Assembly: GCF_013155575.1 (NCBI RefSeq)
Contig: NZ_JABJTU010000116.1
Source of the DNA: Corallococcus exiguus
GTDB lineage: Bacteria; Myxococcota; Myxococcia; Myxococcales; Myxococcaceae
Length of the DNA stretch: 28,109 nt
Strand: one strand, 5' to 3'
The notes beneath the pieces were generated by a model. It had not been told where the DNA came from. It did no database searches and saw nothing but the letters and a program-made list of their open reading frames with translations. Within the stretch, counting starts at the first letter, position 1. The number at the start of each line of letters is the position of its first letter. A program made the position numbers and the translations under genes. Positions 1,944 to 17,778 of the stretch are shown piece after piece.

Positions 1944-3558
1944 CTACTTGTTGATGCGCACCATGGCCACGTCGTAGTGGCGCTCGGTCACGTAGCCGTT
2001 CGCGGCCTTGCCGGGGCGGTACATGTTCCCGGTCTTGTCATCCACGTAGAAGCGGTTGTTCGGGTTCGTGTCCTTGCCCGTGCTGGCGTTCTTCGTGCCC
2101 GGGTCGTGGAACGTGTAGTAGGTGCGGCCCTTGTCGTCGACGCCGCGGCCCGTGATGGTCACGAAGTGGTCCGTGAGGCCGTCCGCGTTGTAGCTCGCGT
2201 CCTTGTGGCTCACGCCCACGACCACCGGCTTGCCGGCCTCCAGCTGCTTGTCGATGTAGCTGCGGCCCTCGGCGGCCTTCTTCGAGTCCACATTGAGCGC
2301 GCCGACGCCGTTCTCGCTCTTGCCCACCTGGATGCGGCGGTCCGGGCCCAGCACGGTCGCGCCGGAGTCACGCGCCATCGCCGTCGCGGCCTTGAAGCAC
2401 GCCGTGTCGCTCGCGGTGTAGCCGTGGCCGTTCTCGAACTGGCTGTAGTACGGCACCTTCACGTGCACCGCAGGCTTGTCCTTGGACGGGGCCACCTGCT
2501 CCGTGTTCGCGGGGGCCGCCTCCGTGGTGGGCTTGGAGGTGTTCGTGCCCTGCGTCGTGGGCTTGCCTTCCGTGGTGCCCGGCTTCGAGCCGTTGTTCAC
2601 GGACGGGGGAACCACGCCCGTGTTGGTGTTGGCCGGCTTCGTCGTGGTGCCCGACTTCTCCTGCTTCAGCATCGCGAGGGCGTCCTTCGCCTCCGACTTG
2701 AAGCGATTGGCCACGCCCTTCTGCACGTCCTTGGAGCTGCCGGAGAAGTGCACCAGGGTGCCGCTGGCGTTGGTGCGGCCGCGCTCGGCGTAGATGTCCT
2801 TGATGAGCTGCTCGTCGCTCACCTTCGCGGGGTCGCGACCGTTGAGCGCCTTCTTGAAGATGTCGTCCGCCTTGCCCGGGCCGTGCTGCACGGAGGTGGA
2901 CCAGGCCACGTCCCGCAGCGCCGCGGAGCGCTTGTCCAGGTCGATGCCCGTCGCCTTCTTGATGTTGGCGGCGCCCGCGTCGTAGTGCGTGGTCTTGATG
3001 TAGTCGTGCTGCGCCTTGTCGAAGCCCTTCGGGTCCTTCGCGGCCAGCTGCTTCCACGCGGCGGAGAACTCCGCGGTGCCCGGCTTGCTGCCCGACAGCG
3101 CCTTGTGGAACTCCGGGTTCGTCTTCTTCAGCGAGTTGACGAACGACTGCGCGGACCCGTTCGCGGAGGCGAACTGGTAGGAGCCGTAGGACACGCCGCC
3201 CTTGTCACCCTTGCCCGTGGACACGGTGCCGGGGCCGCGAGCCTCGTACTTGCGGCTCAGCCCGCCCAGCTCCCCGTTGGTCGCGCTGCTGGAGTTCGTG
3301 TTCGCGGCGGGCGTGGTCGCCTTCGCGCCGTCCGTGGACTGCGTGAAGCTGTCGCCCGACGTCTTCGTCCCCGCGCTCGACTTGTTGGTGCCCTTCGTGT
3401 CGAAGCCGTCCTGCACCTTCAGCGTCTGGCCAGCCAGGATCTTGTTCGGATCCTTGATGTTGTTCGCCTTGGCCAGCGCGTCAACGGTGGTGTTGTAGCG
3501 CTTCGCGAGGCCGGAAAGCGTGTCACCCGACTGGATGCGAACGTTGGAGACGGTCACG
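1944..3558 (-). CDS. Multidomain cell-wall hydrolase: N-terminal LysM + central lysozyme-like (GH108-like?) region + C-terminal C39-like (Peptidase_C39_2/BtrH-like) cysteine peptidase; no signal peptide
   Basis: The track ORF runs to a GTG at 3662 with no SD. An internal GTG at 3558 is preceded by AGAGGGG at 8-nt spacing and is preferred. LysM: [43 protein letters not shown]. Central [19 protein letters not shown] is lysozyme/GH108-like. C-terminal [28 protein letters not shown] ... DHFVTITG gives the Cys/His of a C39-like peptidase. Long Thr/Ser/Gly/Lys low-complexity linkers separate the domains. Confidence 0.6.
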
Positions 3559-3690
3559 GAGAAGACCCCTCTATGTCTGGCCGCGACCAAAGGCGCCGCG
3601 GACGTGCTTGGATTGACCGGATTATCGAAAGGCAATGCGATCAGTTTCGCATTCCCAGTCACAATCGTGTGAAACCAGTGATTCCAGCAA

Positions 3691-3750: not shown

Positions 3751-4785
3751 ATGTCCAGGATCCAACCGGAATTCAAAAGTTTGGCATTACTGTTTGCCAT
3801 TTGCGTCACGGGCGCGGTCCCGGACGCCTCGGCTCAGGGGTCCGAGGGACTCACGGGGGTCTATTCAAACAAGGGCGGGACGCTCGCCATCGTCGAGGGC
3901 AGCAACGAGACGCTCGTGCACTTCTCGGGCTCGTTCCCGCAGGGCAGCAGCGCGGGCACCTGCGATTGCGCCCTGGTCGTCCAGAAGAAGACAGTCACGA
4001 ATTGGTCACTTCATCAGGCGGGTGAGGAAGACGCCTGGACGCTGCGCGTCAATCCCAAGCAATTCGTCCTGGAGTCGGGTCCGTCACCGTCCTGTTGCGG
4101 CGCCGGCTACTCAGGCAAGGACTCGTTCGCCCGGAGCACCGCCAAGCCGCTGAGCATCTGCAAGGTGAAGGTGTCCAAGGCGGGCTTCCACGCGTCGGAC
4201 GCGGCCAACACGCCGCGCAAGGCGTTCGTGGTGTCCGGCGACGCGGTGGAGGCCTACGTCGACCCGGTGGAGCCGGACTTCCTCGCCGCGCGCTTCCAGG
4301 GGCCCCAGAAGGCCACGGCGGGGCTGATCAAGCGTGAGGACCTGGACTGCGCGGCGGAAGGCGCGCCCACGGCCGCGAAGGCTCCCGTGGCCGCGGACAA
4401 GCTCCAGCCCTTCGCGGGGACGTGGGTGGAGTTGACGCGGCAGGGCAAGGGCTTCGTGGTGCTCAAGCCCTGCTCGGCCGCGACGCGCAGCTTCACCGTC
4501 AAGCCCGCGACGGGCGAGGTGGAGGTGCAGCTGGGCCAGGAGGCCACGACGATGAAGGTGACGTCCGTGGAGGCCGGCAAGGGCGCCGGGGCCTGGGTGC
4601 TAGGGCTCACGGCCGCGGACGGCAAGCCGGAGGCGCTCCAGTGGAAGACGGCCGACGCCGCGAAGGGCACCGTGACCGTGAACAGCCCGGACCTCTTCTC
4701 CCAGAGCCACGACTACGTGCGCCAGGAGAAGAAGTCCGCCTTCCCGTCCAAGCAGGAGACGGGGTGCGACGAGTTCGAGCGCTAA
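3751..4785 (+). CDS. Secreted hypothetical protein (Sec signal peptide, Cys-containing, Ala/Lys/Thr-rich)
   Basis: AGGAGGA at 3736-3742 sits 8 nt before the ATG. N-terminus MSRIQPEFKSLALLFAICVTGAVPDASAQG is a classic signal peptide. The first ~350 nt have noticeably lower GC than the surroundings. Its TAA stop (4783-4785) overlaps the TAG of the convergent metalloprotease gene (4782-4784). Confidence 0.65.
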   Translation: MSRIQPEFKSLALLFAICVTGAVPDASAQGSEGLTGVYSNKGGTLAIVEGSNETLVHFSGSFPQGSSAGTCDCALVVQKKTVTNWSLHQAGEEDAWTLRVNPKQFVLESGPSPSCCGAGYSGKDSFARSTAKPLSICKVKVSKAGFHASDAANTPRKAFVVSGDAVEAYVDPVEPDFLAARFQGPQKATAGLIKREDLDCAAEGAPTAAKAPVAADKLQPFAGTWVELTRQGKGFVVLKPCSAATRSFTVKPATGEVEVQLGQEATTMKVTSVEAGKGAGAWVLGLTAADGKPEALQWKTADAAKGTVTVNSPDLFSQSHDYVRQEKKSAFPSKQETGCDEFER

Positions 4786-6362
4786 CGCGCCCGTGAACGC
4801 CGCCGGGCCCGCAGGCCCCCGCCGAGCAACAGCGCGATGAGCGCACCGGACAGGGGGCCCCCCGCGGCCTGGCAGCCACCGTCATCCGCGGGCGTGCGCG
4901 GATCATCGATGGGGTCCACGGGCTTGCCCGCGTCCACGGTCCCCGCATCGGCGGTGCCTGCGTCCGCGCCAGCATCGGGCGTCCCAGCGTCGGTTCCGGC
5001 GTCCGTGCCCGCGTCCAGCGACTCGAGGGGCGCGCAGGACGCGGCCTGGCCGGTGGCCGCGATGCACAGCCGGCCATAGCGCCCCAGCCCTTCCATCCGG
5101 CCGTCCACGACCGCCACCATCACGCGCGTGGCGTCATCCGCGGCCACCTGGGTGCGCAGTGCGTTCGGCCCGTCCACGGTCGCCACCCGCAGCACAGCGT
5201 CATCCGTGACGGCCGCGACGACCAGGTGCACCGTGGCCGGGTCGATGCCCGGCTCGGGCTCATACGAGGCGCCCACGAAGGACGCGCCGCCGGGGACCTC
5301 GAAGATCCGCGAGGCCGCCGCCGCGACGCGTACGCGGTCGATCGTGGTGGGGAGCTCCGCCGCCGTCTTCGCCACCGGCGCATAGCCCTCCCCTCGCGCA
5401 TAGCCGAAGCCCGGCGTCGCGCGCGGACCGGTGCCCAGGTTCCAGGTGGCGAACAGGGCGAAGGCCGCGTCGAAGCTGGAGGCAAAGTCGCGGCGCAGAC
5501 AGGTGTCCAGCAGCACCGGCCAGCGGGCCTCCGGCTGGCGCATGGACTCCTCCAGCAGCGCGACGAGCGCGGCGTCACCGTAGCGCTCGCCCACGAACTG
5601 GAAGAAGAGCCCCGCGCCGTAGATGAAGGTCACGCCGGGCCCCGCGGGGTCCAGCACCAGAGTGCTGTCCGGGGTCAGCATGTAGCCGCGGGTGAAGTGC
5701 TCCAGGTCGTCGAGCGCGGGCTCGAAGCGCTCGGTGGCCCAGACGGCGGTGCCCTCGGAGGCGACGCCGCCCAGGTCGGGCCGGTAGGCGGCCTGCACCG
5801 CGTGGAAGAACTCGTGGCTGGCCAGGATCTCCACGGCCTCTGCGTCGGACGGGTAGTTGTAGCCCGTGAAGTCGTTCTCCTGGAGCATGAAGCCCGTGCA
5901 GCGTGTGACGCCGTCCAGACAGGTCTCCTGCCGGAAGGCGCCGTCGCCAATGCCCGCGAAGTCCACCAGGTACACGTCGAAGCGGCCGTCGCCGCCGTCG
6001 TCCCCGGCGGGGTTCGTGTCATCGGGTGGCAGGCGGAAGCCCAGGTCCACGTAGAACGTCGCCACGCGTTCGTAGGTGCGCCCAACGAGCTCCACGAAGT
6101 CGGGCACGCCGCTGCCATCGGCGTCCGCGGGCGGCACGGCGTGGGTGCCCTGGCGGGTGAAGTGGATGCGGAAGCGCCCACCCGGCGACACGACGGACTC
6201 CACCGTGTCCCCGGGCTCGTAGCGTGGCGTTTGCGAAGTCGGCGAGGTGGGCCGCCCGGACTCGGCGGCCAACCCCACCACGGCCTCCCGCTCGTGCGGG
6301 AGGCCGCGCGGGGTTCCCGCGCCGGCCAGTAACAGGAGCAGCGTGGGAACCCCGGTGGTCAT
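4782..6362 (-). CDS. Secreted zinc metalloprotease (HExxH...E gluzincin-type) with DAGT tandem repeats and C-terminal MYXO-CTERM sorting signal
   Basis: Start ATG at 6362 gives MTTGVPTLLLLLAGAGTP as signal peptide. ILASHEFFHAVQ followed by ASEGTAVWATE gives HExxH plus a downstream Glu. The C-terminal ~40 aa is DAGTDAGTDAGTPDAGADAGTADAGTVDAG then GGCQAAGGPLSGALIALLLGGGLRARRRSRAR, the Cys-Gly / hydrophobic / Arg-rich layout of myxobacterial MYXO-CTERM tails. The start overlaps the upstream lipoprotein stop (TGATG), implying an operon. Confidence 0.75.
   Translation of the reverse strand: MTTGVPTLLLLLAGAGTPRGLPHEREAVVGLAAESGRPTSPTSQTPRYEPGDTVESVVSPGGRFRIHFTRQGTHAVPPADADGSGVPDFVELVGRTYERVATFYVDLGFRLPPDDTNPAGDDGGDGRFDVYLVDFAGIGDGAFRQETCLDGVTRCTGFMLQENDFTGYNYPSDAEAVEILASHEFFHAVQAAYRPDLGGVASEGTAVWATERFEPALDDLEHFTRGYMLTPDSTLVLDPAGPGVTFIYGAGLFFQFVGERYGDAALVALLEESMRQPEARWPVLLDTCLRRDFASSFDAAFALFATWNLGTGPRATPGFGYARGEGYAPVAKTAAELPTTIDRVRVAAAASRIFEVPGGASFVGASYEPEPGIDPATVHLVVAAVTDDAVLRVATVDGPNALRTQVAADDATRVMVAVVDGRMEGLGRYGRLCIAATGQAASCAPLESLDAGTDAGTDAGTPDAGADAGTADAGTVDAGKPVDPIDDPRTPADDGGCQAAGGPLSGALIALLLGGGLRARRRSRAR
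4921..5020. repeat. Imperfect 12-15-nt tandem coding repeats (DAGT units) in the metalloprotease C-terminal linker
   Basis: Visible both as repeated gtcc(a/g)cgg / gcgtccg units and as the DAGTDAGTDAGTPDAGADAGTADAGTVDAG peptide. Confidence 0.6.
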
Positions 6363-7390
6363 CACGGCAGGTAGGCCCAACGCAGGCGGATCGAACCCGC
6401 GCTGGTAGAAGAGCTCACCTTGCCCGTCGTGTCGCACTCCGCCTGCACGGTGGGCTCATAGTAGCCCTTGACCTGCAGCTTCGCGTGACGGCCATCCGCC
6501 AACTGGATGAGGAAGACCTTGTTCGTCATCTGCAGGCATTGGGCATAGTCCCAGAACGTGAGGGTCTGGGTCGCCGGGCTCTGGAGGCCGAACGGGTCCC
6601 CGCTGAACGTGCAGGTGTCGGGGGTGTAGTAATCCTCCGCCTGGAACTGCGCATCCGTGGGCACGGACGTCACCGATTCGAACGTCGCACCCTCCGGCGT
6701 CTGCGCCACCGTCACGCACGACGGCCCGGACACGCCGCTGTTGAAGCGGACGACGTAGCGGCGCACCGCGACGTCCCACTCCGTCGAGTTCAGCGCGGCC
6801 TGGTCATCGATGTTGACCTTCTGGAGGCCCGTCGGCGTGAAGCGCGCGTAGGTGTACGAATCCGGAACGCTGGTGCCACCCGCGCGGCCGTCCAGGAACG
6901 TGAGGTACTCGCCCTGGGTCGTGCCCTCCTCGGTCACGCCGCCGGTGGCGAGGGTGGTCCGGAGCCGGAGCTTGTCGATGCTCTGCTCCGTGCAGGCCAC
7001 GGCGTTGCGGCACAGCTCCGCGCCGCCGTCCGTGGGAGGAGTGCCCGCGTCGGTCTCCGTGCCCCCGTCGGTGGTCGTCCCTGCGTCGGTGTTGGTGCCC
7101 GCGTCGGTGGTCGTCCCTGCGTCGGTGGTCGTCCCTGCGTCGGTGGTGGTGCCCGCGTCCGTCTCCGGCTCTTCGATCGGCGTCAGGGTGCGCAGCTCGC
7201 ACTTCTTGTCCGCGTTGCAGGTCCAGGCCTGGCCCGCGGGGGCCGCTCCCTCATCGCGGCAGTCGAACGCATCCACGCACTCGTCGCCGCTGCATCCCGG
7301 CGCCACCACGGCCAGCGTGAGGGCCGCCAGGGCCCCCATGCCGAACCACCGTGCACTGCTCTTCCGGACCGCCCCTTCGGGGTTGCTCAT
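6362..7390 (-). CDS. Lipoprotein with (TDAGTT)n tandem repeat linker; first gene of a lipoprotein-metalloprotease operon
   Basis: ATG at 7390 is preceded by GGTGA at 5-nt spacing; the track ORF extends to a GTG at 7399. MSNPEGAVRKSSARWFGMGALAALTLAVVAPGCSGDEC is a signal peptide ending in a lipobox (VAPG|C). TDAGTTTDAGTTTDAGTTTDAGTNTDAGTTTDGGTETDAGT repeats follow, then a ~220-aa C-terminal domain with several Cys. The stop overlaps the ATG of the downstream protease by 1 nt (TGATG). Confidence 0.7.
   Translation of the reverse strand: MSNPEGAVRKSSARWFGMGALAALTLAVVAPGCSGDECVDAFDCRDEGAAPAGQAWTCNADKKCELRTLTPIEEPETDAGTTTDAGTTTDAGTTTDAGTNTDAGTTTDGGTETDAGTPPTDGGAELCRNAVACTEQSIDKLRLRTTLATGGVTEEGTTQGEYLTFLDGRAGGTSVPDSYTYARFTPTGLQKVNIDDQAALNSTEWDVAVRRYVVRFNSGVSGPSCVTVAQTPEGATFESVTSVPTDAQFQAEDYYTPDTCTFSGDPFGLQSPATQTLTFWDYAQCLQMTNKVFLIQLADGRHAKLQVKGYYEPTVQAECDTTGKVSSSTSAGSIRLRWAYLP
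7042..7167. repeat. 7 tandem copies of an 18-nt unit (gtscckgcgtcggtsktc) encoding the TDAGTT repeats
   Basis: Direct inspection: the units start at 7042, 7060, 7078, 7096, 7114, 7132 and 7150. Confidence 0.8.
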
Positions 7391-7399
7391 CGTCGTCAC

Positions 7400-7484
7400 C
7401 TTTCGCCGCGGAGACCCGCCGCCGTTCGATGGGGACGATCTCTATTCGATAACGATTCTCATTTTCAATATCGATGATCCACTT
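7400..7484. promoter_or_regulatory. AT-rich (~45% GC) 85-bp spacer between the MVP-like gene stop and the lipoprotein gene start; putative promoter/operator
   Basis: tctattcgataacgattctcattttcaatatcgatgatcc stands out against the ~70% GC background. It contains ATCGAT-like half sites (tcgataacgat ... atatcgatgat) and a TTGAAA -35-like hexamer on the minus strand. Confidence 0.35.
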
Positions 7485-15585: not shown

Positions 15586-16848
15586 TCAATGCTGGGTCTC
15601 GCGGTCCTTGATGAGCCGCTCCAGCTCTTCCCGGATGATGGCCTCCGCCAGCTGCGGTACGACCTCCCAGGCAATCTTCTCGATGACCTCGCGGGACGCC
15701 TTCGACAGCGCCTCGCGCAGCAGCGCCTCGCCGCCATCCGCGGCCGGACGGGCGCGCGCGGGAGGAGTCGCCGGCGAGGGGCCGCCGATATCCAGGGAGA
15801 TTTCCTCCGCGCCGCTGGGCTCGGGCAACGAGTCCTCGATGCGGATGCTCCCCGTGCGGGCCTGCGCGGCGGGCGGGGCGGCCGGTGCACCCAGCCCGAA
15901 CGGATCCCGGGCACGGGCGGCCGGAGGCACCGCGGCGGGCGGGGGCGCGGACGGCAGCGGCGCGGCGCCCGGAGGACGCGGGAAGCCGCCCGGGATGTTC
16001 GGGGCGCCAGGGCCCGGAGGACGCGCGGCCATGCCCGGAGGCGGCGCACCCGGAGGACGCGCGCCCGGCGGCACGGCACCCGGAGGAGGACGCGCCCCCG
16101 GCGGCATGGCACCCGGAGGCGGCGCACCCGGAGGACGCGCACCCATGCCCGGAGGCGGCGCACCCGGCGGAGGACGTGCACCCGGCGGCATGGCGCCCGG
16201 AGGCGGCGCACCCGGAGGACGCGCGCCCGGAGGAACAGCGCCCGGCAGCGGACGCGCCGCACCCGGAGGAGGAGGCACACCGGCGCCCGGAGGACGCGCG
16301 CCCGGAGGCACGGCACCCGGCGGAGGACGCGCACCCGGCGGCACGGCGCCCGGAGGCGGCGCACCCGCGGGACGCGCACCCGGCGGCACGGCGGCGGCGG
16401 GCGGCGCGCTGGCCGGAGCGCTCGGGGCGGAGGTCTGGGGCAGAATGCGCGTCGCGGCGGACGCGGGCATCGTGTTGGACTTCTGGCCCACCAGCGCCTT
16501 CACCTTGTCGAGGAGGATCTGGCTCTCGAAGGGCTTGGCGATGTGGTCATCCGCCCGGGCGGCCTTCGCGCGGTTCTCGTCGAACGCCTCGAAGGTGCCG
16601 GCCAGGAGCAGCACCGGGATGGCCTGCGTGGAGGGGTCGCTCTTGAGCGCCTCGCAGACCTCGTAGCCGCTCTTGCCCGGCATCATCACGTCGGCGAGCA
16701 CCACGTCCGGACGCAGCTCGCGCGCGCGGGAGATGGCGTCCAGCCCGTTGTCCACCGCGGTCACCTGGAAGTCTTCCGTCGCGAAGATCATCCCGATCAC
16801 CTTGCGGATGGTGAGCGAGTCGTCGGCGATCAGTAGATTCTTGGGCAT
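15586..16848 (-). CDS. romR: RomR-like response regulator: N-terminal receiver domain, very long Pro/Gly/Ala-rich (PPGARPPGA)n linker, conserved acidic helical C-terminal domain
   Basis: Receiver motifs LLIADDS ... DVVLADVMMPGKSGYEV ... KPF. ~190 aa of PPGA/PPGARPPGAV repeats. C-terminal LLREALSKASREVIEKIAWEVVPQLAEAIIREELERLIKD. The REC / Pro-rich / Glu-rich helix architecture matches M. xanthus RomR as remembered. Start taken at ATG 16848 (MPKNLLIADD); alternatives are ATG 16872 or TTG 16932. Confidence 0.6.
   Translation of the reverse strand: MPKNLLIADDSLTIRKVIGMIFATEDFQVTAVDNGLDAISRARELRPDVVLADVMMPGKSGYEVCEALKSDPSTQAIPVLLLAGTFEAFDENRAKAARADDHIAKPFESQILLDKVKALVGQKSNTMPASAATRILPQTSAPSAPASAPPAAAVPPGARPAGAPPPGAVPPGARPPPGAVPPGARPPGAGVPPPPGAARPLPGAVPPGARPPGAPPPGAMPPGARPPPGAPPPGMGARPPGAPPPGAMPPGARPPPGAVPPGARPPGAPPPGMAARPPGPGAPNIPGGFPRPPGAAPLPSAPPPAAVPPAARARDPFGLGAPAAPPAAQARTGSIRIEDSLPEPSGAEEISLDIGGPSPATPPARARPAADGGEALLREALSKASREVIEKIAWEVVPQLAEAIIREELERLIKDRETQH
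15900..16455. repeat. Highly repetitive GC-rich coding repeats (ggcgcacccggaggacgcgcgcccggcggcacg-type, 9/27-nt periodicity) encoding the Pro-rich linker
   Basis: Direct inspection; the same units recur more than 15 times with minor variation. Confidence 0.8.
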
Positions 16849-16965
16849 CGGCTCCGGCCTCGGGGGGCGCATACCCCCCTGAATTCGTTTGAGATTTCGG
16901 GCGAGCAAGCCTGCCTGCACGCCCTGTGTCAATCGGAGAAGCTTAGGATTCGCGCGTTGGGCCGA

Positions 16966-17778
16966 TCAAGAAAACATGCGCTGCAGGTCCAGTAACATCA
17001 CCGGATCCGGCAGCCCCGGCGCCCGGAACGTTCCGGGAAGCTCGGCCGGCTTGAACTTCTGCAGCACACCAAGCACCCGGGTGGCCGCCAGCCCCACGTT
17101 CCGCCCCGCCAGTTCCGTGAGGACGAACAGCTCCTCCGCCTGGGCCGGCGCACCCAGCAGCGCTGGAATCGAACAGATGGGCCACAGCGCCTGCGCGTGG
17201 GGATAGACGCCCGCCACCGGCCCGCTCTGCACCGGGAGCACGCTGAACGCCTCGCCCCGGGGCACCACCTGGGAGACGCAACCCAGCGGAACGCCGAACA
17301 GCACCCCCTGGGATTCCAGCACCAGTGCCCGCTCCGGGGGCACGTCCGCGTAGTGCACGGGCCGGGGCTCCGGCGGGGTCGCCCGGGGACCCGCCCGGTG
17401 CGGCAGCGCCTCCACGATGAGCTCCAGGTACAGCCGATCCTTGTGCAGCACCGCGCCCCGGCTCAGCGGCGCCAGCGAGTCCGCCAGGCCCGGAGGCAGC
17501 AGGAAGAACGGATCCCTCGCGACGTCCGCGACCTCCACCACGGCGCGCACCCGCACCGCGAGCGTGGGGCTGACGTCCAGGACCACGACCATGCCCGGCA
17601 CTTCCTCAGGCAGGCCGCCGAGCAGCGCGGCGAGGTCCTTCACTTCCAGTACGCCGCGCAGACTCGCGCCGCGAGCGCCCGGCATCGCGACCTCGATGAC
17701 GGAGGTGGCCTCTACCGCGTAGCGCGTCTCTCCGGCCTCCACCAGCAGGCAGAGCCGCCGTCCGCTTTCAAAGGGCAC
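16966..17778 (-). CDS. Tandem CheW-like domain protein (putative chemosensory coupling/adaptor protein), upstream of and probably co-transcribed with the romR-like gene
   Basis: Two segments resemble CheW cores (RRLCLLVEAGETRYAVEATSVIEV ... VKDLAALLG and ALVLESQGVLFGVPLGCVSQVV). GTG start at 17778 is preceded by AGGG. Its stop lies 34 nt before the upstream-most romR start candidate. The family call is weak. Confidence 0.4.
   Translation of the reverse strand: MPFESGRRLCLLVEAGETRYAVEATSVIEVAMPGARGASLRGVLEVKDLAALLGGLPEEVPGMVVVLDVSPTLAVRVRAVVEVADVARDPFFLLPPGLADSLAPLSRGAVLHKDRLYLELIVEALPHRAGPRATPPEPRPVHYADVPPERALVLESQGVLFGVPLGCVSQVVPRGEAFSVLPVQSGPVAGVYPHAQALWPICSIPALLGAPAQAEELFVLTELAGRNVGLAATRVLGVLQKFKPAELPGTFRAPGLPDPVMLLDLQRMFS

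Follow-up and report, generated by a model that had tools for sequence, protein, structure and literature searches.

What is the function of two genes, one for a lipoprotein and one for a metalloprotease, that share a single nucleotide in the myxobacterium Corallococcus exiguus? The pair lies on a 28,109-nucleotide stretch of DNA from contig NZ_JABJTU010000116.1 (assembly GCF_013155575.1), which is called the window throughout; the features of the pair are collected in Table 1. Both genes are of named families, the lipoprotein (HmuY1) of the HmuY family and the protease of the MXAN_6640 family, yet they are experimentally unstudied in the literature searched, which also offered no description of a HmuY–protease operon and nothing on myxobacterial hemophores. 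The sole mention of a myxobacterial HmuY in that literature is an aside from 2009, according to which the HmuY and HmuR genes are adjacent in M. xanthus and Stigmatella. Here, we report that the two genes rather likely form an iron-regulated operon, which pairs a HmuY-fold lipoprotein with a surface-anchored zinc protease and which would harvest heme at the cell surface. A preliminary description of this DNA had dwelt on the DAG(T) tandem repeats of both proteins; the repeats are indeed present, and their significance is weighed below.

The family of the lipoprotein is clear from its C-terminal domain. Residues 197–314 match the Pfam family HmuY (PF14064) with 49.7 bits against a gathering cut-off of 27 (E = 5.8e-13), the close homologues all carry PF14064 and the orthologues are named 'HmuY family protein' by NCBI. 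The nearest full-length relative, from C. exiguus, is 80% identical. AlphaFold2, given 52 homologues, modelled residues 125–342 and a small Cys-rich N-terminal module with confidence, whereas the repeats came out as disordered. In a Foldseek comparison with the PDB, all 12 significant matches of this model were HmuY-family structures (8b6a, 3h8t, 6ewm, 3u22, 4gbs, 8b61, 6eu8 and 6r2h), with target-normalised TM-scores of up to 0.67; the proteins matched were BfrB, HmuY, BVU_2192, BF2707, BfrC, Tfo and PinO. The predicted fold of the C-terminal domain, for which the preliminary description had considered an inhibitor, chaperone or substrate, is thus that of the HmuY hemophores. Its assignment as a lipoprotein also holds, given a signal peptide and a lipobox cysteine (Cys33), with the canonical L-x-[GAS]-C at the same place in orthologues. 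The best match by both profile (E = 8e-16) and Foldseek (2.6e-9) is BfrB of Bacteroides fragilis (HmuY-Bf-2, 8b6a), which is about 20% identical to HmuY1. Neither protein has heme-iron coordinating residues; BfrB differs in lacking the cysteine framework of HmuY1 and a coupled protease. Within this group, BfrB has been reported to bind heme via the porphyrin ring without iron ligation, and BfrC to bind nothing (PMC12106395).

Some database records of the lipoprotein are shorter. Two 217-aa versions, P0004 (Corallococcus exiguus) and P0005 (Corallococcus sp. CA053C), start right behind the repeat and have no signal peptide or tether, and a 217-aa entry is 100% identical to the C-terminal domain of the present protein. 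These entries are probably a start-codon or assembly artefact due to the repeat.

The protease matches the NCBIfam model NF045524 ('MXAN_6640 family putative metalloprotease') over profile positions 1–289 of 290, with 239 bits against a cut-off of 140; no Pfam match was obtained. Its closest orthologue, also from C. exiguus, is 94% identical. The H, E and H of the zinc-binding motif and two downstream glutamates (E203 and E211) are invariant in 48 family members, and an active gluzincin is therefore expected; protease residue numbers taken from the alignment (A3) and from the structure model run one higher, as the query ended at 6365 and included one extra codon. In the model (pLDDT 82.9), the catalytic domain is followed by a beta-sandwich, a linker without order and, at the end, a helix; on this model the enzyme is a gluzincin of M30 (lugdulysin)-like fold. 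A profile search of the PDB detected no sequence homology to M30 members, and a sequence-level placement in a solved peptidase family was abandoned when that search gave only a spurious repeat-protein match. The structural counterpart, lugdulysin/hyicolysin (MEROPS M30; 7bb8), is 12% identical, a relationship undetectable by the profile search. It is a secreted staphylococcal enzyme and lacks the MYXO-CTERM, the PPC-like sandwich and the HmuY partner of the present protease.

How would the protease be held at the cell surface? A MYXO-CTERM signal is defined by three parts: a Cys motif, a transmembrane helix and an Arg cluster (PMC11980579). The tail of the protease contains GGC497, QAAGGPLSGALIALLLGGGL and RARRRSRAR in this order, with a helix modelled at residues 506–526, so that the MYXO-CTERM tail previously noticed has the tripartite architecture, the same as in TraA, the model client of the myxosortase (MrtX) pathway. 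The motif is GGC-Q, as against the generic GCGC. A search with TIGR03901, which had been suggested as a check, gave a divided answer: the tail scored alone lies right at the cut-off (20.1 against 20), but the whole protease scores 12.4. TIGR03382 likewise gave 20.7 bits for the tail (cut-off 15.85) and 12.1 for the whole protein.

The two genes are bound together in position and in evolution. The TGA stop codon of the lipoprotein gene (6364..6362) and the ATG of the protease gene (6362..6360) share one nucleotide, as first described. Among 130 distinct adjacent pairs in the Myxococcota, a 4-nt or 1-nt stop/start overlap is kept in 98: 85 have the 4-nt form only (57 GTGA, 24 ATGA and 4 TTGA), nine allow both starts and four have the 1-nt TGATG only. 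An HmuY1-alignment scan with one genome per species yielded 80 loci from Myxococcia and Polyangia, to which the M. xanthus DK1622 locus (L081), where a HmuY gene lies upstream of MXAN_6640, was added. An MXAN_6640-family gene follows downstream on the same strand in 73 of these 81 loci. Conversely, a protease-alignment scan found HmuY1 upstream of the protease in 60 of the 64 metagenome loci with enough upstream sequence. The pairing is thus close to obligate, and the possibility raised at the outset that the two proteins would prove unrelated in co-occurrence fails on these counts. Judged by gene order and overlap, the two genes constitute a conserved, phylum-wide myxobacterial operon, in which the overlap would couple their translation.

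Such close pairing might instead mean that the lipoprotein exists for the protease. It could be a cognate inhibitor, chaperone or docking subunit, which keeps the protease latent or in place and has no ligand role of its own; adjacent-gene protease inhibitors such as Inh/AprI of Serratia and Pseudomonas and the potempins of Tannerella offer a comparison. The near-obligate pairing and the conserved overlap are what this explanation expects, as are the matched tether lengths of the two proteins and the replacement of the heme-iron ligands by invariant cysteines, probably forming disulfides in a protease-resistant fold (both described below). Nevertheless, in three loci (L012, L015 and L017) HmuY1 occurs without the protease, and the next gene encodes a TonB-dependent receptor of about 650 aa. 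These HmuY1 proteins stand before a heme TonB receptor and retain all the invariant residues of the clade, which argues against a pure inhibitor role. Such a role would also leave the Fur box and the linkage to hmu genes unexplained, and we judge this explanation unlikely.

Upstream of the lipoprotein gene, the 94-nt gap includes an AT-rich island, in a genome of 69% GC, with a Fur-box-like operator. Its core 19-mer, GAAAATGAGAATCGTTATC, matches the E. coli Fur consensus, GATAATGATAATCATTATC, at 16 of 19 positions and lies 58 nt upstream of the ATG. No other site in the window matches with at most three mismatches, and 100 shuffles produced no such site at all. In an alignment (A4) of 11 Corallococcus and Myxococcus loci, including M. 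xanthus DK1622, the columns that cover the operator (35–63) are invariant at 25 of 29 positions, and the flanks are unalignable. In 1.5 Mb of fetched loci, the boxes with three or fewer mismatches all lie upstream of an HmuY1 gene or of the TonB receptor of a heme operon, and nowhere else. To judge from the motif and its conservation, Fur or a near relative within its family probably represses the operon in an iron-dependent manner. A scan of 4600..7600 for sigma-70 promoters gave no match, which is unsurprising because this is a high-GC myxobacterium.

The second link to heme is found in the gene neighbourhoods of relatives. HmuY2, a second short HmuY paralogue, has homologues in Corallococcus and Myxococcus stipitatus that belong to a heme-uptake operon of canonical make-up, in which the genes for a TonB-dependent receptor, HmuY2 and HemS/ChuX are joined by those for a periplasmic binding protein, a permease of FecCD type and an ABC ATPase. 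In a number of lineages these genes adjoin the pair. The receptor stands next to HmuY1 or the pair in L005, L007, L012, L014, L015, L017, L021 and L023, and the receptor–HmuY2 unit is joined to the pair in differing orders in L005, L014, L021, L023, L012, L017, L092, L103, L125 and others. The order in Archangium and Cystobacter is receptor, HmuY2, HmuY1, protease; in L021 it is HmuY1, protease, receptor, HmuY2, with the heme operon divergent beside the pair. In an Archangiaceae metagenome-assembled genome (L007), the whole heme operon leads directly on to HmuY1 and the protease, with all genes on the same strand, and in L015 HmuY1 heads a heme-uptake operon. Gene orders that vary while the linkage is kept indicate repeated rearrangement, which is the pattern expected of functional coupling to heme uptake. 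Overall, hmu genes lie within the flanks at ten loci from genomes and about ten from metagenomes, or about 20 out of 161, compared with a heme operon density of roughly one per genome of 10 Mb.

Other proteases are also found near the pair. An S8 subtilase, homologous between loci, lies near it in 51 of the 81 genome loci, mostly in Polyangia, and an M28 peptidase follows in L012 and L017; these co-located proteases fit a proteolysis-coupled uptake system. Downstream of HmuY1 in L013 (6689..9844), L018 (6672..9908) and L020 (3358..6459), a crude ORF call puts an S8 subtilase and an MXAN_6640 domain in one frame, with a MYXO-CTERM-like segment between them in L018 and L020 and none reported for L013; this is either a true fusion or two genes without an intervening in-frame stop. 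In Archangium minus (L005, 2262..3287, plus strand), a 341-aa DUF6607 protein is encoded ahead of the heme-type TonB receptor, and DUF6607, receptor, HmuY2, HmuY1 and protease look like a single operon.

Does the cargo have to be heme? The pair could comprise a generic predatory or nutritional protease and a HmuY-fold partner for another ligand, such as peptides, cobalamin, another tetrapyrrole or a metal. Members of the HmuY family do vary in ligand, one of them binding none, and S8 and M28 peptidases are co-located with the pair. The nearby TonB receptors also fall below the cut-offs of both the heme model TIGR01785 (208 against 317 bits) and the B12 model TIGR01779 (211 against 600). Yet the receptor that adjoins the pair in several lineages is 41–63% identical (tblastn best segment) to the receptor of the HemS/HmuTUV operon, and the shared Fur-type box points to iron. 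M. xanthus requires B12, and cobalamin was tried as a cargo on the strength of the B12-like receptor scores; it was rejected, given that the window and 11 loci showed neither a cobalamin riboswitch nor a member of any other Rfam family, and that the receptor belongs to the HemS/HmuTUV operon. No link between BtuH and HmuY was found in the literature searched. Another ligand therefore seems improbable.

The residues of HmuY1 itself give a mixed picture. In HmuY of Porphyromonas gingivalis, Arg79 and Tyr80 contact the heme propionates (PMC2671838). These residues align with R211 (invariant) and Y212 (Tyr or Phe) of HmuY1 in a WD..RRY motif. HmuY1 also has four near-invariant cysteines among 149 family members (C133, C260, C285 and C319), and a fifth, C225, is present in 93%; the invariant cysteines probably form disulfides in a protease-resistant fold.

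Several observations weigh against heme harvesting by an iron-regulated operon. The first concerns the heme site. In a profile alignment to 3h8t, the axial ligands His134 and His166 of HmuY have no counterpart in HmuY1: the His134 column is the invariant C260, and His166 falls in an insertion beside the invariant C285. Across the 149 members there is no conserved His, and M288 is the sole conserved Met. The absence of the HmuY ligands excludes heme-iron coordination of a known type, and canonical bis-His or Met ligation (the His/His, His/Met and Met/Met finger loops) was accordingly rejected for HmuY1; HmuY2, unlike HmuY1, has an invariant His in the finger-loop region. Heme binding by HmuY1 would have to be ring-only, by analogy with what is reported for BfrB. 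Its role may be to bind the ring of the porphyrin, to dock hemoproteins for the protease or to control that enzyme. The second concerns the genes around the pair, as neither a TonB receptor nor HmuY2 nor any hem gene lies in the 28-kb window, and hmu genes are missing from the flanks of about 85% of loci. The third concerns regulation: no Fur box was found upstream of HmuY1 in the Polyangia loci at four or fewer mismatches; the E. coli consensus served as the reference in scoring the box, and a different regulator of the Fur family could be the one that binds it. Finally, neither MXAN_6640 nor MXAN_6641 is mentioned in the literature searched.

The repeats that had first drawn attention to this locus remain to be placed. 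Tandem Repeats Finder reports the lipoprotein tract as period 18 with 6.6 copies (7041..7159) and as period 54 with 2.4 copies (7041..7167). Its product reads ETDAGT, TTDAGT three times, NTDAGT, TTDGGT and ETDAGT, followed by a degenerate PPTDGG, and the tract holds a 29-nt exact internal repeat. The protease linker, LDAGTDAGTDAGTPDAGADAGTADAGTVDAGK, has eight DxG units at irregular spacing, and its DNA is weakly tandem (period 12, 2.5 copies, 4987..5016). The lipoprotein tract stands just behind its N-terminal lipid anchor, and that of the protease just ahead of its C-terminal one. Within the 28-kb window, these two ORFs are the sole ones with at least four DxG units inside 45 aa.

The preliminary description had regarded such sharing by adjacent genes as unusual and had suggested recombination or length variation between the two linkers. 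In favour of the idea that the shared repeats are special and drive recombination or concerted length change, both tracts exist, both vary in unit number among Corallococcus relatives and the DxG counts of partners correlate over loci (Spearman 0.55). Such sharing is not out of the ordinary. The lipoprotein protein search also returned unrelated exported proteins of Corallococcus, Myxococcus and Archangium, matched via the repeat or the N-terminal module only, and (x)TDAGT(x) arrays occur in P0086 and P0078, in a member of the endonuclease/exonuclease/phosphatase family, in an esterase that has a MYXO-CTERM tail itself, and in further proteins. DxG clusters are also present in a dozen ORFs without relation to the pair among 0.96 Mb of related loci. 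Most of 74 orthologous pairs have no DxG units at all; the linkers are Pro/Glu-rich in Myxococcus and Archangium and Gly-rich in Sorangium and Polyangium.

Recombination between the two linkers can also be set aside on the nucleotide level. The longest exact word common to both tracts is 12 nt, with 69–76% identity over at most 32 nt; the two form direct repeats 2 kb apart, and an event between them would delete both functional domains, so that linker exchange is implausible. No deletion allele joining the two tracts was found in about 160 loci. Copy number does vary among Corallococcus relatives, as had been anticipated. In six Corallococcus backgrounds (a comparison that at strain level drew on P0108, P0109, P0113, P0115 and L001), the lipoprotein has 8, 5, 8, 10, 4 and 15 DxG units and the protease 8, 8, 7, 5, 3 and 5, respectively. 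All of these changes preserve the reading frame, and within the genus the two tracts are out of step, against the expectation of concerted change. Slippage within each tract is the simplest reading of this pattern, and a special role of the shared repeats in recombination or concerted length change is hardly credible. On the structure models and their placement, the DAGT arrays are generic, length-variable disordered tethers next to each lipid anchor, and spacers only.

The N-terminal module of the lipoprotein (lipobox, CxDECVDxFDCRDxG...C...C and DAGT array) was also found at the head of other Corallococcus lipoproteins, namely the PD40/TolB-like P0086 and also P0078, for which no Pfam hit is recorded. 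The Cys-rich mini-domain is missing from the HmuY1 orthologues of other genera. The portable module suggests module shuffling at the repeat.

Tether length, as distinct from repeat composition, may relate the two proteins. It was taken from the lipobox Cys to the first domain Cys in HmuY1 and from the last sandwich Cys to the MYXO-CTERM Cys in the protease. In an exploratory comparison of 97 adjacent pairs (L001–L167 and the window), the lengths of partners co-vary (Spearman 0.81; 0.41 on rough sister contrasts, p = 0.009), although the parsing was automated and error-prone (L002 was mis-called), which counts with the points against given above. The lengths are often near equal, as in 33/33, 40/40, 57/58 and 73/64 (HmuY1/protease). 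Matched tether lengths would fit side-by-side action of HmuY1 and the protease.

How might heme harvesting by the operon proceed? In the first step, iron shortage would free the operator of Fur, as the motif and its conservation suggest. In the second, the TGATG overlap would lead to the two proteins being made in fixed proportion. In the third, both would be exported and lipid-anchored according to the signals that they carry: the lipoprotein N-terminally, and the protease C-terminally via MYXO-CTERM, MrtX and type II secretion, a pathway known from other work (PMC11980579). In the fourth, the protease would cut hemoproteins of lysed prey or of the surroundings in a gingipain-like manner. In the last, HmuY1 would take the freed heme or porphyrin, or hold the hemoprotein for the protease; from HmuY1, the cargo would pass to a separately encoded HmuR-like TonB receptor, HmuY2, HemS and HmuTUV, as the linkage in other lineages suggests.

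The closest precedent is the Hmu system of P. gingivalis (HmuY, HmuR and the gingipains), in which surface proteases free heme and the protease-resistant HmuY hands it to a TonB receptor (PMC2671838). This gingipain–HmuY cooperation is documented there and also in PMC10100897. HmuY1 is of the same Pfam family and fold and has the same N-terminal lipid anchor as HmuY, and the Myxococcota also carry an HmuR–HmuY2–HemS–TUV operon. Nevertheless, there are clear differences. The myxobacterial protease gene overlaps that of a HmuY paralogue phylum-wide, and it encodes a zinc gluzincin, whereas the gingipains are cysteine proteases. In HmuY1, His134 and His166 are missing and a cysteine framework is present, the receptor is encoded elsewhere, outside this window, and the hosts are free-living predators. 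A more distant parallel is the hemoglobin protease Hbp/Tsh of E. coli, a dedicated secreted protease that degrades a hemoprotein and delivers the heme to an uptake system. The concept is alike, but Hbp, a serine-protease autotransporter with a heme-binding capacity of its own, is unrelated in fold, anchoring and gene organisation. As a tentative extension, which we hold with more reserve than heme harvesting as such, the Myxococcota may possess a two-protein heme device: Fur-controlled overlapping genes would encode a gluzincin and a cysteine-locked HmuY paralogue, both fixed next to each other at the outer membrane on stalks of co-evolving length, and the two would dismantle prey hemoproteins and deliver the tetrapyrrole to HmuY2/HmuR.

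Table 1. Features of the HmuY1–protease pair and its upstream region (window coordinates)
Feature	Position	Strand	Remarks
Fur-box-like operator	7443..7471 (core 19-mer 7448..7466)	minus	in 94-nt gap upstream of lipoprotein gene
Shine-Dalgarno-like AAGGTG, 7-12 nt 5' of ATG 7390	7396..7403	minus	read from sequence; kept in Corallococcus rows of alignment A4
HmuY1 lipoprotein gene	6362..7390	minus	342 aa, ATG start at 7390
Signal peptide and lipobox (..AVVAPG-C33)	7292..7390	minus	from translation
Cys-rich N-terminal mini-domain (C33 SGDECVDAFDCRDEG...WTCNADKKCE), Corallococcus-specific	7193..7294	minus	helix and hairpin model, pLDDT 79-89
Seven 18-nt units encoding (T/E/N)TDAGT, predicted disordered tether	7041..7167	minus	Tandem Repeats Finder; pLDDT <50
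Predicted HmuY-fold beta domain, residues 125-342	6365..7018	minus	AlphaFold2 pLDDT mostly >90
TGATG stop/start overlap	6360..6364	minus	1 nt shared, at 6362
MXAN_6640-family putative zinc metalloprotease gene	4782..6362	minus	526 aa
Predicted gluzincin catalytic domain	5358..6245	minus	
HEFFH zinc-binding/catalytic motif (H183, E184, H187)	5802..5816	minus	read from sequence
Predicted beta-sandwich domain, like pre-peptidase C-terminal (PPC) and collagen-binding domains	5043..5348	minus	
DAG(T/A/K) linker, predicted disordered tether before C-terminal anchor	4921..5020	minus	from translation; pLDDT 39-44
MYXO-CTERM sorting signal (GGC497, hydrophobic helix, RARRRSRAR)	4785..4886	minus	

The surroundings of the pair in the window hold several further genes. 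The gene directly upstream of the lipoprotein gene (7485..9761, minus strand) has a 758-aa product that is homologous to the major vault protein (MVP) of eukaryotes and contains both Vault repeats and the MVP shoulder domain; bacterial homologues of this protein are uncommon, and the gene is present at the same position in all Corallococcus loci fetched via protease orthologues (L082–L087). On the other side, a convergent gene (3751..4785, plus strand) for a 344-aa exported protein without a family match overlaps the 3' end of the protease gene by 4 nt; it is found in Corallococcus loci L082–L086, at the same position in L082 and L084–L086 and one gene farther in L083. It is followed by the gene of a 572-aa protein (1944..3662, minus strand) with LysM and a VgrG3-like C-terminal domain of peptidoglycan hydrolase type. 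The LysM/VgrG3-like gene lies two genes from the pair also in C. exiguus L082 and in the related L084 and L085. Farther upstream of the pair, a valyl-tRNA synthetase gene (12038..15532, minus strand) has a Lys/Ala-rich, histone H1/HC2-like C-terminal tail, in whose coding sequence a 15-nt unit is repeated in tandem about 21 times (repeats 12077..12387). The next ORF (15586..16932, minus strand) encodes a receiver domain of response-regulator type, as judged by visual inspection of the translation, and behind it an extended Pro-rich array (PPGARPPGA...); its repeats (16013..16407) are the source of degenerate 15-, 30- and 114-nt tandem repeats, and it adjoins a CheW-domain gene (16966..17778).

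For the annotation of these proteins, our analysis brings two corrections: the DAGT arrays are generic tethers, and some database entries truncate the lipoprotein gene so that it starts behind the repeat. For the biology of the myxobacteria, its bearing is on the acquisition of iron from prey by predators, which has been little studied. If heme harvesting by the operon is true, the pair would be a compact and genetically tractable model, available in M. xanthus DK1622, of proteolysis-coupled heme capture; it would show a hemophore fold working without the usual iron ligands, and the myxosortase pathway would gain a client of clear physiological role. If the more tentative two-protein device is also true, it would be a predator's genetically hard-wired counterpart of the gingipain–HmuY partnership, with a mode of heme binding or hemoprotein docking that would be new for HmuY proteins.

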